Made by a program: the position numbers and the translations under genes
In this document: piece after piece, positions 42,759-50,041 of the stretch
Layout of the letters: every line of letters begins with the position of its first letter
Position numbering within the stretch: the first letter of the stretch is position 1
The notes under the pieces: generated by a model
The model's input: only the letters and a program-made list of their open reading frames with translations
What the model was told of the DNA's origin: nothing
Database searches by the model: none
Assembly: GCA_020353515.1 (NCBI GenBank)
Contig: CP070695.1
Span: 1,829,435 to 1,893,434 of the forward strand
Length of the DNA: 64,000 bases
From: Candidatus Heimdallarchaeota archaeon
Lineage (GTDB): Archaea; Asgardarchaeota; Heimdallarchaeia; Hodarchaeales; Hodarchaeaceae
Direction of reading: 5' to 3'

Positions 42759-43964
42759 TCAAATCGACATGGAGTTTTCATCATTTGTCATAGATTTTCT
42801 TTCCACATTCTTTATTCGTTCAAGTATTGAGGGATGAGACATAAAAAATAATTTTTCCCACCATGGGGGGTCGACATCTGATAGATTTTGGTCCGCCATC
42901 TTGATGAACAGACTTTTAGCGACAGCTGGATTCCTGATAATAGAAGAAGCAAAATCATCTGTTTCTGCTTCTTGCCTTCTTGAGTACCAGAGACTCGGGA
43001 TATCTATTATAAAAGAGAATATCCAAAAACATAGGCCTATAACTGGGATACCGCTAACATCTCCAATGATTGAAGAATAACCTAAAAGATTGGTAAGAGG
43101 GGAAAAAGTCATATAGGTAAGCAAGAAGATCAAAAAAGTCGTAAAACTTCCAAGAATGATCCTTTTCCAGAAATCATGGTGTTTAAAATGACCAATCTCG
43201 TGAGCAAGGATCCATTTAATCTCATTCGGGGTATATCTATTTAGCATTGTGTCTGCAATGATAATGCGTCGAGTATTTCCAAGTCCTAAAAGAGCAGCAT
43301 TTGAAGTGGTTGCCATCTCACCGATTTTCCAGATGAATGCTTTTGTGGTTTTAATACCTATCTGCTCTGTCATTTCCACTAGCTCTACTGCTAATTCAGG
43401 ACGAGTGTCCTCTAATGGGTCAAATTTAAAGAAAAGCGGGAGTAAAACTATCGGGATCAGATTAGAAAAGATAATTGTGAATAGAATGAGTATTAGCGTT
43501 GCCCAAATCCACCAAGTACTTGGAAAAGTTCTCAGTAACCAATAAAATCCCTCAAACATGGGAAAACTTATCAGGAAACCAATGAAATTTCCTTTGATGT
43601 ATCGAATCAACCATTTCTTATTTGTAAGTTTAGATAATCCATATTTTCTAGATAACCTTGAATGTAAGTAAAAAGACACAGGAAACTCAGCAAAATTTAC
43701 AATAAGGAAACCCACAATAAAGAAGATACCTGTAAGAATGAAAGGATCATTTATGCCAATATTATTCAATAAATTACGAAAAAATACAGTTAATCGGGAA
43801 AGTAGTACACCAATAGAGAGTATGAAAGAAATAATCATCAACCGAACGCTATAACGGCGAGAAGTACGTGTATAGGCAATCGCTAGCTCACGACGTTTAG
43901 GATCAAACTCTGTTATTAGTGTGGGTTCAGTCAGAGGGATTTCATCTAAATTTTCACTATCCAC
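42759..43964 (-). CDS. M48A Ste24-like integral membrane zinc protease
   Basis: NA...G.G..RRII..DT, AHEIGH, SRRQE..AD-like motif, SHPS..ERI. Confidence 0.92.
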   Translation of the reverse strand: MDSENLDEIPLTEPTLITEFDPKRRELAIAYTRTSRRYSVRLMIISFILSIGVLLSRLTVFFRNLLNNIGINDPFILTGIFFIVGFLIVNFAEFPVSFYLHSRLSRKYGLSKLTNKKWLIRYIKGNFIGFLISFPMFEGFYWLLRTFPSTWWIWATLILILFTIIFSNLIPIVLLPLFFKFDPLEDTRPELAVELVEMTEQIGIKTTKAFIWKIGEMATTSNAALLGLGNTRRIIIADTMLNRYTPNEIKWILAHEIGHFKHHDFWKRIILGSFTTFLIFLLTYMTFSPLTNLLGYSSIIGDVSGIPVIGLCFWIFSFIIDIPSLWYSRRQEAETDDFASSIIRNPAVAKSLFIKMADQNLSDVDPPWWEKLFFMSHPSILERIKNVERKSMTNDENSMSI

Positions 43965-44287: not shown

Positions 44288-47200
44288 ATGCAAATCTTAA
44301 AAAAGAACCCATTGTTAATTCTAACTTTATTTATAATATTAGCTCCATTGGTAGTTGGAATACAATTTTTTGGAGATAATATGCCAATAACAATTATTGA
44401 ATCGCTAAATGAAGATAATATAGAAACTATTCCCATATTGAATGAAAGAAACGACGATATAGAGTCAATCTATGAAAAAGAATCTAGTATTTATCTGAAT
44501 AACGTCTTAGAACGCCTTAGATTAGGAGAAGAGCCAAGTACTTCAGAAAGTGTATTTCTCTCTTATTCTAATCGAATACCTGATCTACCAGAATGGGTAG
44601 AAATACAAAGGTACTTTAAACTAATCCCCTTGATACAAGTAAGTACTACTCTTGAAAATATTCCCAATCTTACAGAAATTCGTCACGTTGACGCTGTTAT
44701 CCCAGTCGGAAAAGGAGTATTAGCAAAATTATCTAGTTTTACGGAGGATTATAATCCTTACATTGGTGAATTCCCCCTTTTATTAAATGAAACTGTTTCA
44801 TTGGTTGAAGCTGAAAATGATAATACAACTGGTTCTGGTGTTATAATCGCTATATTGAGCACCGGAATTGATGAGACCCATCCAATGTTGGATGATCAGG
44901 ATGACGATTGGTCGACAACTGATGATCTTAAGATTATTGATTCATATGATGCATGGGATGGAGGTATAACTGATGATCAAAATGGCCGAGGAACTGCTCT
45001 TGCCTCAATTGTTGCTGGAACAGGTGCCGTTGGTGGTAGATTAGAGACAGAATTATCCTTTACATATCCTTATCCTTATGAGACAGATCCAGAATATGAA
45101 ACCCAAATAGTAAATACGACCATTAATATTGGGACTCAGATGGGTCTTGCGCCTGAAGCTTCTCTTTTCGATGTGAAGATTACTAATGATGCTGGTGATG
45201 CATATGACGAGGGTATAGCAATTGAAGGAATTGAATGGGCTGTTGACCATGGAGCAGATGTAATTTTGTTAGATGATCTACCTTCAGCAACTTCTGCAAT
45301 TATTTCGGTGATTGAAGCAGCTACCTCTCGAGGAGCTCTGGTAGTCGTCCCAGCTGGAGACTTTGTCCCACCAGGAGGTTATGACGATGATAACATAGCA
45401 CCCTACTATTCAATAAACTCTCCTGCTTCTGCACCTACTGCATTAACCGTGGGAGCAACCACGGAAACTAATTCGTTATGGGTACAATCTGAACGAGGTC
45501 CAGTCCCCGTAACGGAACATTCAAAACCTGATGTCGCTGCTCCAGGAGTTTTTATGTTAGGAGCAAGCATTGATTATTCAACTAGTGAAGGATCAAACCC
45601 TGATGGTTGGCAAGGAGAGCCAGGTGACATTGATGATACTCTCTATTTTGATGTCTTTTCCAGTACAGCGATGGCTGCTGCAGTTACAGCTGGTGTCACT
45701 GCGCGCTTAATAGAGGCTTATCCTGGAGCTTCAGCAACAGCCATCAAAATAGCTTTAAGAAAAGGAGCGACTGATCTTGGATTTAACGAAATGGCTCAAG
45801 GTAAAGGAAAAATAAGTTTGTCAGAAGCCCTTGATATCTTAGAGGCAGCTCCTAAAGAAGCAAACAATTTAGTAGGGAATGTGTATAAAAAGGAATTCAC
45901 GGTTCCAATGGTAAATTATACTGATTTTTCAGGGAAAAGGATCCTCATTGATGGTTCCTGGTCTACATCCCCTCTAGCTTTTCCAGGTGGAGGACCTTAC
46001 GATTGGAGTCAGCAAACAAACGGTAATCTTAGCACATTAGGCGTTACCTCAAACTGGCAACATCCTTATGATGATACTGCGAACCAGTACACTTGGTATA
46101 ATGTAAGTTATCAAGGTGCGTCACAAGTACGGATCACCCTCAATAATCTAACAGTGGCTACTGGGGATAACTTTACCATTTATCGATCTTCCACTCCAAA
46201 TGGGCCTCTTACTAGTGTTTATGGTCCAACGAGTAGTAATTTTACTGGGAGTTTCACTGATACGACTACTGATAATTACTTCTACTTTAGATGGGGTAGT
46301 AATGGAGATGGATATACGACTGGTCAGAGTGTTTTTGGAATTTATGGCTTTGTTGATCTATGGTTCTATGCTGATACTACCCAACCACCCGCAGGGACTT
46401 TTGAATTTGAAGAACTCGTTACTCAACTTATTGACCTCGGAGCTGTCGTTGAATATTGGTATGCCAATTCTGCAGATGCACCTCCTACCTCTATATTATT
46501 AGAATACTATGATATTTACTTCCTTGGACAACCACTCGCAGTTGCGACCACAGGTATTCCTGGTGAATATTATCAATGGATGAGTGGAAATTTAACGAAT
46601 TATCTGAATGCAGGTGGTCGAGTACTATTTATTGGAGACTATGAAAATCAATATTATAATGATGCGACAGAGGCTTTGGGGGTGACGTGGCACTATGGTG
46701 GTGGTGGAGGGCCAACAACTGATATTGTGAATCATGTTCTTACAACTTATCCATTTACAATTGAAGAACTTTTAATAGACGCTCCGTATGCCTATTTTAC
46801 TGGTACTGCTCCAACTCTGGTTCAAGAAGCGGGAAAAGCGACAATCAAGTATTATAACCAAAACAATGGAAAAGCTGTATTCGTTGCGGATGAGGATGTT
46901 TTCAATGATGAAATGTGGGATAATCCATTCCCAACAAACCTTAACCCAAGCCGATATAATAATTCTCAATTAGCCATGAACATTTTCTATTGGCTGAGCG
47001 ATATCAGTTATCAGTCTGGAGAACGAGATGATGGAGGTGAAGAGCATTTTGAACTCATTTCTTATGAATATCGCCCAATTATGACTGATGAAGACCTCTG
47101 GGAGGTTGAGATTGTTCTCCAAAATATTGGGAATTTCACCAGTCAAGCATGGGTAGCTTTTGGATTCGATTACACACCAACATCATACACATTAGGTTTC

Positions 47201-50041
47201 GGAGCGATTGGTAACCCAGATGGAGTAATGGATACAGCTGGAGAAGATAATGCCAATGATACGTGGCACTTTTCTATTGGAGGAGATGGGGATATCAATT
47301 CATTACAATCTAATACCACAATAGAATTCTTTTACAATATTTCAGAAAACTATCCAGTAAGTCAGATTGCAATGCCCTATATTGAGATATCTGCCTCAGG
47401 AATGAATCGAGATACAGCGGAATGCCTTCTACTCTTAAATGGTTATCAAATTGGCCCAATATATGAAACAAACACATCTACTGGTGGAACTGGAGTTATG
47501 TATTATCCTATTCACCCTATTAGCAGATTACAACAGTATAATAACACTGTAGAAATCACTGTTCCAGATTCTATCGATTTAACTTTGGAATCCTTCAGGA
47601 TTGTAGGGTACAACTTCAGTAATTCTTTAGGCACTCAACATATTGCTACATCAAATATCGCTCCTAATCAAAACGCAGCCATAACATTTCAATATACTCC
47701 CCCTGATCTAGAGGAACCTGCTTATTATGAACCTGAAATCATCTTCACACCTTATAATATGACTCATGCTCAATTCTCACCTGGATATGCATCTTCTCTC
47801 TTCAAAGAGTTGGCTTTAACCGTCGATTATGGACTCATTGATCCAGGCTATTACAACGAATTTGGCACACAAGTATACGCAATTCCTAAGACAACACGTC
47901 AAGGTGATCTTCCACTCTTGTATGACATTACCCCAGGATCTCTTAGTTCCTCTTCGAGCACTAAGATTGCACAATTCCCAGGTGACATCAGAGTCGACGG
48001 ATTAACCGTGATGAGTAGCAGAATTGTTGATGATCCAAGTTTAAGGTTATCAGGAACTATAACTTCTGTAGCAGGACTTGGAAACTATTCAGAAGCCTCA
48101 CTAGGGATAAGTTCCTATGTGTTGGCCAATTTAGCACCAGAGCTATTCTTACTAAATGATACATGGGCTTCCACAGCTCAACTAGATATGAAATACCTTA
48201 ACCATTCCTCCATTGGTCCTATCCTTCAAGTCGACATCCCTCAAACCCAGTCACCAACCACTCTTAGTGGCACTCTCTCTTTGATTTCAAATGGAACGTC
48301 GCTATATCAAATTACGCTTCAAATAACTATTAGCAATCCTATATCTTCTTTCTTGCTTCTTGATTCTCTAGATATAACACAAGATCCTGGTGGATATCTT
48401 GAGCGAGACTATGATAAACTTTGGGATCAGCTATATGAGATGTGGCAAATAGCGGTTGAAGCGGGATATGATATAGATTCCCTCACTCAAACATGGTATC
48501 TGTATGGTCACCGAACTCATGATGACAGCGTGTCTGCCGATCCTTTCGAATTTTTAGATAAACATGTTTGTAGTGTTCCTCCAGAGGAAGATCTGCCATA
48601 TGAGGGACTTATTGGTGTTGATCTAGCTGACACATTCAATCCAGGGTATTTGGATGACTACTTTACCAGGGGTGGTAATCTAATTCAGCTCGGAATAGGA
48701 GGACCAGTACCAGCTAGCGGTGATCACTTGGGACCTAATTTTATTGCTGATATTGATTATTTTGACAGAGAAGAGGAGATGACAACTCTCGTAAGTGGAA
48801 CTGATTCAATTAATCCTCTCATGGACACAGTCAATCAACTTTTCTACCTTGGTGGAGGTTACATGGTAATCGATCAGGAGAGTTACGATGATCAACTAAC
48901 TTACGATGTGATTACTGGTCAAAATTGGCTATTTAGCGGTCCCATTGTGGCACCTAATCGTGATATAGCTTTCATTTATCATGATGCTGTTTATCCTGAT
49001 CGCTTTGGGTATGATCAAGGGCAATATACCAGTCTCGCACAAACCTATAAGGGATTAAAGGTTGTGGTTGGATCAGCTAGTATGACTCAAAGTTGGTTCC
49101 TTGAACAGACTGATTATTGGGCTTATGGGTCAATGAAATACGCAGCAGATCAAAATATCATTGCAGAAGAGTTCAGTGTTAATTTAGGCAATAATAAGTT
49201 TGTTGAAAACATCTTTAGAGTCGGTGGAAATAAAGCCCCTACAATAGAGTCAATAAACATGTCAACACCTCATGTAGGACCTGGAGATTATGTAACTGTT
49301 CGAGTAAAGGTATCTGATGATCAAGAGAATCCCTCTGAGTTGACTGTTTTATGCCCAGAGAAGATAACTCCTGGAATGAACTACATAAATTGCTCCTATG
49401 ATTCCAATTCCAGCACGTTCATAGGGAGCTTTGCAGTTGTTGACACCTCCTTCATTGATTTTTGGAACATCTATGTTATTGATGATCTCTATAGGATCAC
49501 AGAAGCTGTCGATGGGGTAAAAAGATTTCTAATCCCTGAAATGAACGTAAAACCTGTTGCTTGGATTCCCTTCAATGATGAAATGAACTATTATTCAATC
49601 ATTGATGTGGAAAAGGGTGAATTACTCTCTTTTGCGTTTTATTACGATGATTTCGAAGATGGAGACGCTATTATATGCAATATAAGTTTGGTTTATTATT
49701 TCAATGAAGAAGAAACAGAAATAATAAGTTCAGAGCTTTTTGCTGGATTGGGTCAAGGTATATTCTTAGTAGATACTACTACTTTAAGGGATGGAACTCA
49801 TATAGTTTTTGCATTTGTCACAGACACAGACGGTGGTACAGCAGAATACCAATTGGCAGGATTTAACATCGGCAGAGGAACTCTCTATAAACCAAAACCA
49901 AAACCAGCAGGCATTGATCCAGTCCCAATTCTCATTGTAGGTGGTTCAACGTTAGGTCTCGCTGCAGCAGTCGGTGGTGGATGGTATTTCTTGTTACATA
50001 GACGAGGTATGGGTATCAGAGATCTTTTCCGACGAGATTAA
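44288..50041 (+). CDS. 1917-aa membrane-anchored S8 subtilase homolog with substituted catalytic residues (pseudoprotease) and GATase-like/GIFT-type accessory domains
   Basis: Subtilase scaffold G.GV.IAILSTGI, G.AP.A.L, SPA.A..A.TVGA, S.RGP, KPDV.APG, QGKG. Catalytic positions read S191, R234, D358, A461. C-terminal TM followed by RR. Confidence 0.85.
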   Translation: MQILKKNPLLILTLFIILAPLVVGIQFFGDNMPITIIESLNEDNIETIPILNERNDDIESIYEKESSIYLNNVLERLRLGEEPSTSESVFLSYSNRIPDLPEWVEIQRYFKLIPLIQVSTTLENIPNLTEIRHVDAVIPVGKGVLAKLSSFTEDYNPYIGEFPLLLNETVSLVEAENDNTTGSGVIIAILSTGIDETHPMLDDQDDDWSTTDDLKIIDSYDAWDGGITDDQNGRGTALASIVAGTGAVGGRLETELSFTYPYPYETDPEYETQIVNTTINIGTQMGLAPEASLFDVKITNDAGDAYDEGIAIEGIEWAVDHGADVILLDDLPSATSAIISVIEAATSRGALVVVPAGDFVPPGGYDDDNIAPYYSINSPASAPTALTVGATTETNSLWVQSERGPVPVTEHSKPDVAAPGVFMLGASIDYSTSEGSNPDGWQGEPGDIDDTLYFDVFSSTAMAAAVTAGVTARLIEAYPGASATAIKIALRKGATDLGFNEMAQGKGKISLSEALDILEAAPKEANNLVGNVYKKEFTVPMVNYTDFSGKRILIDGSWSTSPLAFPGGGPYDWSQQTNGNLSTLGVTSNWQHPYDDTANQYTWYNVSYQGASQVRITLNNLTVATGDNFTIYRSSTPNGPLTSVYGPTSSNFTGSFTDTTTDNYFYFRWGSNGDGYTTGQSVFGIYGFVDLWFYADTTQPPAGTFEFEELVTQLIDLGAVVEYWYANSADAPPTSILLEYYDIYFLGQPLAVATTGIPGEYYQWMSGNLTNYLNAGGRVLFIGDYENQYYNDATEALGVTWHYGGGGGPTTDIVNHVLTTYPFTIEELLIDAPYAYFTGTAPTLVQEAGKATIKYYNQNNGKAVFVADEDVFNDEMWDNPFPTNLNPSRYNNSQLAMNIFYWLSDISYQSGERDDGGEEHFELISYEYRPIMTDEDLWEVEIVLQNIGNFTSQAWVAFGFDYTPTSYTLGFGAIGNPDGVMDTAGEDNANDTWHFSIGGDGDINSLQSNTTIEFFYNISENYPVSQIAMPYIEISASGMNRDTAECLLLLNGYQIGPIYETNTSTGGTGVMYYPIHPISRLQQYNNTVEITVPDSIDLTLESFRIVGYNFSNSLGTQHIATSNIAPNQNAAITFQYTPPDLEEPAYYEPEIIFTPYNMTHAQFSPGYASSLFKELALTVDYGLIDPGYYNEFGTQVYAIPKTTRQGDLPLLYDITPGSLSSSSSTKIAQFPGDIRVDGLTVMSSRIVDDPSLRLSGTITSVAGLGNYSEASLGISSYVLANLAPELFLLNDTWASTAQLDMKYLNHSSIGPILQVDIPQTQSPTTLSGTLSLISNGTSLYQITLQITISNPISSFLLLDSLDITQDPGGYLERDYDKLWDQLYEMWQIAVEAGYDIDSLTQTWYLYGHRTHDDSVSADPFEFLDKHVCSVPPEEDLPYEGLIGVDLADTFNPGYLDDYFTRGGNLIQLGIGGPVPASGDHLGPNFIADIDYFDREEEMTTLVSGTDSINPLMDTVNQLFYLGGGYMVIDQESYDDQLTYDVITGQNWLFSGPIVAPNRDIAFIYHDAVYPDRFGYDQGQYTSLAQTYKGLKVVVGSASMTQSWFLEQTDYWAYGSMKYAADQNIIAEEFSVNLGNNKFVENIFRVGGNKAPTIESINMSTPHVGPGDYVTVRVKVSDDQENPSELTVLCPEKITPGMNYINCSYDSNSSTFIGSFAVVDTSFIDFWNIYVIDDLYRITEAVDGVKRFLIPEMNVKPVAWIPFNDEMNYYSIIDVEKGELLSFAFYYDDFEDGDAIICNISLVYYFNEEETEIISSELFAGLGQGIFLVDTTTLRDGTHIVFAFVTDTDGGTAEYQLAGFNIGRGTLYKPKPKPAGIDPVPILIVGGSTLGLAAAVGGGWYFLLHRRGMGIRDLFRRD

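Follow-up and report, generated by a model that had tools for sequence, protein, structure and literature searches.

A giant Asgard archaeal surface protein with a four-fold substituted subtilase active site as a likely non-catalytic binding or scaffold ectodomain

What does a subtilase do once every residue of its catalytic apparatus has been replaced? This question is raised by a gene in a 64,000-nucleotide stretch of DNA (hereafter the window; positions 1,829,435 to 1,893,434 of contig CP070695.1, assembly GCA_020353515.1) from a Candidatus Heimdallarchaeota archaeon. The gene is the sole long reading frame in its part of the window (Table 1), and its protein product (pI 4.05, ~211 kDa) is labeled, like its orthologs, as an 'S8 family serine peptidase' in databases. 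As a statement of function, this label is almost certainly wrong. An earlier note, made from the DNA letters, had listed four substitutions at catalytic positions within an intact open reading frame (ORF) of 5.75 kb. It had proposed that selection maintains the protein for a non-catalytic role such as peptide receptor, adhesin, scaffold, or inhibitor of an active paralog. The analyses described herein lead us to consider it likely that the protein is an old, selected pseudo-protease, in which a zymogen-like, remodeled subtilase head and a GIFT domain together would form a non-catalytic binding or scaffold ectodomain.

The Pfam family Peptidase_S8 (PF00082) gives a single match, covering residues 182-501 with 92.8 bits against a cut-off of 21.8. 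Catalytic positions were assigned by HMMER alignment to Tk-SP (3afg) and subtilisin BPN', and the alignment, the codons, and the translation agree exactly with the four substitutions and the intact ORF noted earlier. By the definition used in MEROPS for S8, an active subtilase carries an Asp-His-Ser triad and an oxyanion Asn; here, these positions hold S191, R234, A461, and D358, respectively. By reading of the genetic code, a single base change would not suffice for two of the four replacements, each of which needs two. The replacements reflect neither chance nor sequencing error, because the same set is present in all 18 full-length orthologs. Ser at the Asp site and Asp at the Asn site are common to all members, and the residues at the other two sites vary among them (Table 1).

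The changes extend beyond these four positions. Relative to the consensus of an active sister family (discussed below), HGTH has become RGTA in the dead clade, and the substrate-strand motif SMSLGG has become ILLDD. Directly after Asp358, 10 residues are inserted (PAGD-FVPPGGYDDDNIA-PYY). This insertion is acidic and conserved, and both the active sister family and another dead family have a 10-column gap at the same loop. Residues Y365, D367, A371, P372, Y373, and Y374 of the loop are invariant in the clade, as are T460, S191, and D358. A former active site that has been rebuilt and then frozen fits a new binding surface better than the mere keeping of a stable fold.

A protein with such invariant residues might instead still be an enzyme that works through another constellation, using either a sedolisin-like Asp at the oxyanion position or Ser191 as a new nucleophile. 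In sedolisins (family S53), the oxyanion position is likewise occupied by Asp; in the clade, S191, D358, and T460 do not vary, and three orthologs have Ser at position 461. However, the nucleophile site is occupied by A, V, or S across the orthologs and the general-base site by R, W, or M. Because sites 461 and 234 are variable in this way, the canonical sites offer no conserved nucleophile-base pair. The substrate strand SLGG has been changed as well, and we regard cryptic catalysis of either kind as very improbable.

The orthologs come from a search that covered 5.8 billion proteins. It yielded 18 further proteins of 1222-2177 amino acids, mostly ~1900, with 42-88% identity over the first 560 residues; in total, the family comprises ~19 Asgard orthologs with 36-89% identity. 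Submitters have labeled their sources as Thor-, Heimdall-, Hod-, or Promethearchaeota, and one partial sequence is assigned to Kariarchaeaceae. These labels disagree with one another: the ortholog of 88-89% identity (P0003) is filed under Thorarchaeota, and a genome of the window's own GTDB genus (L029) is filed under Hodarchaeota. Given such conflicts, the range of the family should not be inferred from the labels.

Among the 18 full-length orthologs, mean column identity is 52%. Conservation is highest in the S8 domain (mean top-residue frequency of 0.74, with 26% of columns invariant), the GIFT domain is second (0.71 and 20%), and the least conserved parts are the signal region, the linker, and the transmembrane (TM) helix with its tail. 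Codon tests used Nei-Gojobori estimates. Orthologous DNA came from genome contigs for two true orthologs, of which one is partial, and from metagenome contigs for one more. For 648 codons of the C-terminal part compared with L043, the nonsynonymous divergence (dN) is 0.107 and the synonymous divergence (dS) is 0.90, which corresponds to an omega (dN/dS) of ~0.12 for this one unsaturated pair. Compared with L040, the S8 domain has a dN of 0.21, below that of the middle region, and a dS of 1.35; its dN is the lowest or second-lowest of the three regions compared. When S8 divergence is divided by that of the remaining sequence, the dead clade gives 0.77 and the active sister family 0.64, which indicates that constraint on the dead domain has not collapsed.

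The dead residues are thus shared by the whole clade under purifying selection, and the dead state is old and selected rather than a product of decay. These shared residues, the leading conservation of the S8 domain, the omega value, and an intact fold with its prodomain all agree with the earlier proposal of selection for a non-catalytic role. The opposing scenario, in which close orthologs remain active and the window's copy evolves neutrally, is not what we find, as the active relatives form a separate family, 31-38% identical over the N-terminal 560 residues.

The fold of the head is intact. We built an AlphaFold2 model of residues 1-620 from 37 aligned sequences, and predicted local distance difference test (pLDDT) values are 85-97 in most 10-residue blocks of the prodomain and S8 regions. 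The best Foldseek matches of this model are unprocessed zymogens, namely ProN-Tk-SP (3afg), pro-subtilisin E (3whi), and pro-Tk-subtilisin. When VIA-align is used, the S8 domain superimposes on mature subtilisins with a Z score of ~38 and a root-mean-square deviation (rmsd) of 1.6 Å over 265 residues. Alignments to the pro-forms (3afg_B and 3whi_A) begin at model residue 57 or 85. Z scores overall are ~38-42, and the unprocessed pro-forms rank first. The modeled head is, in shape, a complete subtilase zymogen, prodomain included.

A second model (m975bdb3c414a), of residues 540-1700 with a pLDDT of 73, places an alpha/beta domain at residues ~548-917, beta-rich structure up to residue ~1352, and a second alpha/beta domain at residues 1353-1665. 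In the first of these domains, the first strand is split from the remainder by a beta-sandwich (residues ~601-692). Independently of Foldseek, we compared this model by VIA-align with 48,161 PDB representative chains. The top matches are the GIFT domain of mouse IFT52 (5fms_A; Z 19.4, rmsd 2.4 Å, 190 residues), a human oligosaccharyltransferase chain (6s7o_G, which we take to be OST48; Z 17.7), a yeast oligosaccharyltransferase chain (6c26_B, presumably Wbp1; Z 15.8), Chlamydomonas IFT52 (8bd7_B; Z 15.2), and residues 618-874 of human site-1 protease (S1P) (8uw8_A; Z 15.0, rmsd 3.5 Å, 186 residues). Generic glutamine-amidotransferase-like proteins rank below these five. As modeled, residues ~548-917 are therefore a GIFT domain by fold. 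By sequence, no relevant Pfam family (PF23355, PF09822, and PF14258) matches above its cut-off; there is only a weak ABC_transp_aux match at residues 839-898 (E 0.06, 13 bits against a cut-off of 34.7). Likewise, a profile of the GIFT region finds no match below an E value of 0.7 among PDB sequences, those of S1P included.

The domains that follow the GIFT domain need not have new folds, even though the searches assign them none. Profile searches of PDB sequences give no match for the second alpha/beta domain, as for the GIFT domain, and the VIA-align match lists for the second model are filled by the GIFT domain. Internal duplication of the GIFT domain, with the second alpha/beta domain as the repeat, finds no support at the sequence level (hhalign probability of 0.8%). 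In an ESM Atlas search with residues 1190-1665, every look-alike scores below 0.9, which is uninformative. Residues 1666-1870, judged from the sequence, may form Ig-like beta-sandwiches, and a search for the C-terminal module as a stand-alone or split form returned contig-end fragments only.

Both ends of the protein carry topology signals (Table 1), and most orthologs, like the sister families, share the N-terminal hydrophobic segment. The protein holds 28 N-X-S/T sequons, compared with 16 ± 3.5 expected from shuffled sequences. Of the 28, 11 keep their position in 15 or more of the 18 orthologs, among them N167-E-T, which is invariant and lies at the start of S8. A motif similar to the conserved one at this junction occurs in the active sister family as well. 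Because a signal segment, a C-terminal TM helix with a basic tail, an acidic pI, and an excess of sequons occur together, the predicted topology is that of a type-I membrane surface glycoprotein with an ectodomain of ~1850 residues.

Such features could also belong to a bulk component of the cell envelope, S-layer-like or part of a glycocalyx, in which the dead S8 domain would be a stable building block without a specific ligand. Typical archaeal surface glycoproteins are large, very acidic, rich in sequons, anchored at the C terminus, and poor in cysteines. The protein has all of these properties, including few cysteines, and Foldseek lists the Nitrosopumilus S-layer among its low-probability matches. 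However, the gene was found in only 4 of 22 genomes of the genus, and a distribution this patchy argues against a core envelope role; the carriers among the 21 other species genomes of the genus are G062 and G202 (55-63% identity) and G211 (82%). Moreover, conservation peaks at the former active site (S191, D358, and the inserted loop), beyond what the stability of the fold needs. We judge a bulk envelope function to be improbable.

Table 1. Features of the giant pseudo-subtilase gene and its upstream neighbor, with positions in the window
Feature	Position	Strand	Evidence and remarks
Whole gene, 1917 amino acids plus stop	44288..50041	+	ORF without internal stop; GGAG and GAGGTG motifs just 5' of ATG
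Putative hydrophobic N-terminal signal sequence or anchor, residues 1-29	44288..44374	+	Hydrophobic window at residues 3-32
Subtilase prodomain, residues ~57-145	44456..44722	+	pLDDT ~90; best structural matches are to pro-subtilases in unprocessed form; predicted to remain covalently linked
Prodomain-S8 junction, residues 146-175	44723..44812	+	Conserved NPYxGEFPLLLNET motif; invariant N167-E-T sequon
Catalytically dead Peptidase_S8 domain, residues 176-530	44813..45877	+	Pfam match, subtilisin fold, clade conservation
Ser191 for catalytic Asp	44858..44860	+	ILSTG opposite I(I/L)DTG; codon AGC; invariant in clade
Arg234 for catalytic His	44987..44989	+	NGRGT opposite NGHGT; codon CGA; R, W, or M across clade
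Asp358 for oxyanion Asn	45359..45361	+	PAGD opposite AAGN; codon GAC; invariant in clade
Loop after Asp358, residues 359-374, FVPPGGYDDDNIAPYY	45362..45409	+	Holds the conserved clade-specific 10-residue insertion at the former active site
Ala461 for catalytic Ser	45668..45670	+	SSTAMA opposite GTSMA; codon GCG; A, S, or V across clade
GIFT domain, class-I glutamine-amidotransferase-like fold, residues ~548-917	45929..47038	+	Structure model; beta-sandwich insert at residues ~601-692; VIA-align Z of 17-18 to chain G of human and yeast oligosaccharyltransferase structures
Beta-rich domains, residues 918-1352	47039..48343	+	Secondary structure of model; homologous to active sister family
Second alpha/beta domain, residues 1353-1665, family-specific	48344..49282	+	Structure model
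C-terminal region, residues 1666-1870	49283..49897	+	Conserved; residues 1666-1700 covered by model
Predicted C-terminal TM helix (residues ~1879-1903) and short basic cytoplasmic tail (HRRGMGIRDLFRRD)	49922..50038	+	Hydrophobicity, ortholog comparison
M48 peptidase, upstream neighbor	42759-43964	-	Peptidase_M48_N, E 1.8e-21: N-terminal five-helix domain of CAAX prenyl protease, Ste24 type

Where could such a protein have come from? The nearest non-orthologs (P0020-P0024 and P0076-P0092, the latter from an exhaustive search of 1.84 billion representatives) are ~1400-1750 amino acids long and have kept D, H, N, and S at the four positions. Members of this active sister family have a prodomain, an S8 domain, a region homologous to the GIFT domain, and the same topology of signal and C-terminal TM helix as the dead family; one cluster (P0020) carries Bathyarchaeota labels. 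An hhalign comparison of the two families extends over 1318 columns (E 3e-121), from the prodomain to near the TM helix. The two also have in common an S8 insertion (residues ~246-281 of the window's protein), which the other dead family is without. Based on this full-length homology and the shared insertion, the dead family probably derives from a working giant surface protease. The active giant archaeal S8-GIFT proteases thus resemble the dead family in full-length homology, topology, and the S8 insertion, but they differ in that they keep D/H/N/S and SLGG and are without the 10-residue loop after the oxyanion position. The active family is likewise uncharacterized.

The other dead family forms a second lineage (P0026, P0028, P0031-33, P0094, and others) with the patterns D-H-D-A and D-R-D-G. 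Like the protein studied here, its members are Asgard type-I surface proteins by their predicted layout, with a prodomain, a dead S8 domain (Asn-to-Asp and Ser-to-Ala/Gly), a GIFT domain, and a C-terminal TM helix. Unlike it, they keep the Asp and often the His, are ~1400-1600 amino acids long, and have a cytoplasmic tail of ~75-100 residues. The last residues of that tail look conserved within subgroups. By hhalign, only residues 77-521 of our protein align with this lineage, and no homology between the two dead families is detected beyond the S8 domain. In a tree of S8 domains, the clade of our protein is monophyletic with a support of 100 and has the longest internal branch (0.65), and the second dead lineage forms a clade of its own with the same support. 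Catalysis seems to have been lost many times among large surface subtilases.

Relatives of the second kind bring up another role, namely that of an outer, non-cutting subunit of a membrane transporter, with a partner encoded elsewhere, as in that dead subtilase-GIFT family or in GldG with the ATP-binding cassette (ABC) transporter GldA/GldF of type ABC-2. The GIFT domain and the weak ABC_transp_aux match fit this view. At locus L031 (6720-13924, Promethearchaeota metagenome-assembled genome (MAG) DZ2M.269), a related 1470-residue S-H-D-A pseudo-subtilase with GIFT/ABC_transp_aux matches lies immediately downstream of an ABC2_membrane_3 permease gene and an ABC_tran ATPase gene, with overlapping ends. 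Furthermore, an approximately unbiased (AU) test leaves a single clade of all dead S8 domains unrejected, and a MacB-type ABC operon lies 3.7 kb upstream of the gene in the window. However, that operon is separated from the gene by unrelated genes and is missing at the two other loci inspected (L040 and L029), ABC-2 permease or ATPase genes adjoin the gene at none of the three loci, and the likeness of the two dead families is confined to the stretch aligned by hhalign. A transporter subunit is accordingly an unlikely identity for this protein.

Degenerate subtilase homologs occur in additional genomes as well. One in an Anaerolineales MAG (L032) has ILSTGI together with V, D, and D, and one in a marine group III euryarchaeote (L033) has ILSTGI with G at the His position. 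Two other Asgard genomes (L021 and L025) encode homologs with the patterns G-H-D-A and D-R-D-G.

Within its own genome, the gene has nine S8 companions, all with canonical residues wherever they align (one, par10, aligns around its Ser only), and none of them shares the C-terminal 1377 residues. No close or adjacent paralog was found in the genome, and the suggestion in the earlier note that the protein inhibits an active paralog thus gains no support. One S8 paralog of 1628 amino acids (G000:C1:3407165-3412048, minus strand) has very large insertions in its protease domain; its His, Asn, and Ser motifs are found, and a simple pattern search finds no D[ST]G motif for the Asp.

The genes adjacent to the pseudo-subtilase in the window, a divergently transcribed M48 peptidase and a cysteinyl-tRNA synthetase, are not those found elsewhere. 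The M48 peptidase does not adjoin the orthologs; at L040 the neighbors are an unknown ORF of 624 amino acids and small ORFs, and at L029 they are tetratricopeptide repeat proteins.

Several of our observations weigh against the view that this is an old, selected pseudo-protease with a binding or scaffolding ectodomain derived from an active giant protease. Synonymous divergence is saturated for most pairs, and the dN/dS ratio comes from a single pair of 648 codons. The S8-only tree does not group the dead clade with the active family (a borderline rejection, AU p = 0.046 against the grouping), and the unrejected grouping of both dead lineages has a better likelihood than the free search. No neighbors are shared across the window, L040, and L029, such that the neighborhood gives no functional hint. 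Finally, the distribution is patchy: the family-specific domains were found in 4 of the 22 genomes of the genus, and among the 400 Asgard species genomes sampled, no further one was found to have the second alpha/beta domain.

With respect to the trees, dead domains may attract each other. Giving the full-length homology and the shared insertion more weight than the S8-only tree, we read the loss of catalysis as independent of that in the second dead lineage. The transporter-subunit, bulk-envelope, and cryptic-catalysis readings are each less likely than that of a selected pseudo-protease, and the protein almost certainly binds or scaffolds rather than cuts. The receptor, adhesin, and scaffold roles named by the earlier note cannot be narrowed much.

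It seems reasonable to envision the following course of events. The ancestor would have been a catalytically active surface protease of archaea that already had today's full-length layout, running from pro-S8 and GIFT through the beta domains and the alpha/beta domain to the TM helix. Catalysis would have been lost once, on the long stem branch, and purifying selection would have followed. The outermost module of the present protein would be a subtilase zymogen that never matures, whose prodomain is expected to stay attached because self-cleavage is impossible without a nucleophile. Its cleft would have been remodeled by LLDD in place of SLGG and by the acidic 10-residue loop beside the former oxyanion hole. 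Borne on a glycosylated, membrane-anchored stalk, the remodeled cleft and the GIFT domain might then offer a binding or scaffolding surface outside the cell, perhaps as a receptor, an adhesin, or an organizer of the envelope.

The mislabeling of this family has practical consequences, in that metabolic reconstructions of Asgard archaea would overcount proteases. The family also shows cleanly how a large surface protease can become a non-enzyme in nature, and an active, ancestor-like family is available for comparison. Asgard cell-surface biology is nearly unknown, and the layout of the protein recalls that of S1P, with a GIFT fold found otherwise in IFT52, OST48, and GldG. This combination of an S1P-like layout and a GIFT fold makes the protein a reasonable target for structural and binding studies. 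We found no paper describing the family in the full-text literature on Asgard GIFT domains, Asgard site-1 protease, and archaeal pseudoproteases or subtilases.

Among characterized proteins, eukaryotic S1P (MBTPS1/SKI-1; PDB 8UW8 and 9CSD) has a similar layout. It is active, with D/H/N/S at the four positions (the catalytic residues presumably being D218, H249, and S414), unlike the protein described here. The two are alike in having a signal, a prodomain, an S8 domain, a beta-sandwich, a GIFT domain, a C-terminal TM helix, and a short basic tail. In our protein, however, the sandwich interrupts the GIFT domain behind its first strand, and ~950 residues follow the GIFT domain. In S1P, prodomains, the S8 subdomain, a P-like beta-sandwich, the GIFT subdomain (residues 617-998), and a membrane anchor have been delineated, and the GIFT subdomain packs against loops that bear the oxyanion residue, N338 (PMC11231238). 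We considered a specific relationship with S1P and rejected it. The S8 match to S1P (Z 37.7) is generic, being tied with those to all subtilisins, the GIFT region has no sequence match, and S1P comes ~55th when the search uses the active sister family's profile, with the match confined to the S8 stretch. The likeness is one of architecture and fold only. With its catalytic residues intact, the active family (P0020-P0024 and P0076-P0092) is nearer to the S1P layout than the dead family is.

A bolder idea, which we consider quite doubtful, is that archaea possess a whole radiation of membrane-anchored pro-S8-GIFT surface proteins, active and repeatedly inactivated, and that site-1 protease of eukaryotes could have arisen from it, as perhaps could the GIFT modules found in OST48 and IFT52. 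The family described here would then be a receptor specific to Asgard archaea that stems from an S1P-like ancestor, whose remodeled cleft might recognize a peptide or glycan signal at the surface.

Closer in concept are CspC and CspA, subtilase-family germinant sensors of Clostridioides difficile (PMC6636752, PMC7200643). Like our protein, they have a subtilase fold, a degenerate catalytic site kept by selection, and a prodomain that cannot be self-cleaved; in the CspC pseudoprotease, the prodomain is not autoprocessed because of the substitutions in the triad (PMC6636752). The Asgard protein combines a degenerate triad with a prodomain that is likewise predicted to remain uncleaved. CspC and CspA act by binding or signaling rather than by proteolysis, and we propose the same for the Asgard protein. 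There is no specific affinity to the Csp group, given that the NCBIfam model germ_prot_CspBA, with its cut-off of 1250 bits, reaches 22 bits over a local match of 57 residues, and the match to the CspB structure by VIA-align is no better than those to subtilisins. Csp proteins are soluble spore proteins of ~550 amino acids with a jelly-roll insert, in which the Asp is kept and only two triad residues are lost. In contrast, the Asgard protein has four positions replaced within 1917 residues, is predicted to be membrane-anchored, has a GIFT domain and further domains, and is archaeal. Pseudo-subtilases are already known from CspC and CspA, and what is new here is the replacement of all four positions, a giant S1P-like architecture, an archaeal origin, and an identifiable active sister family.

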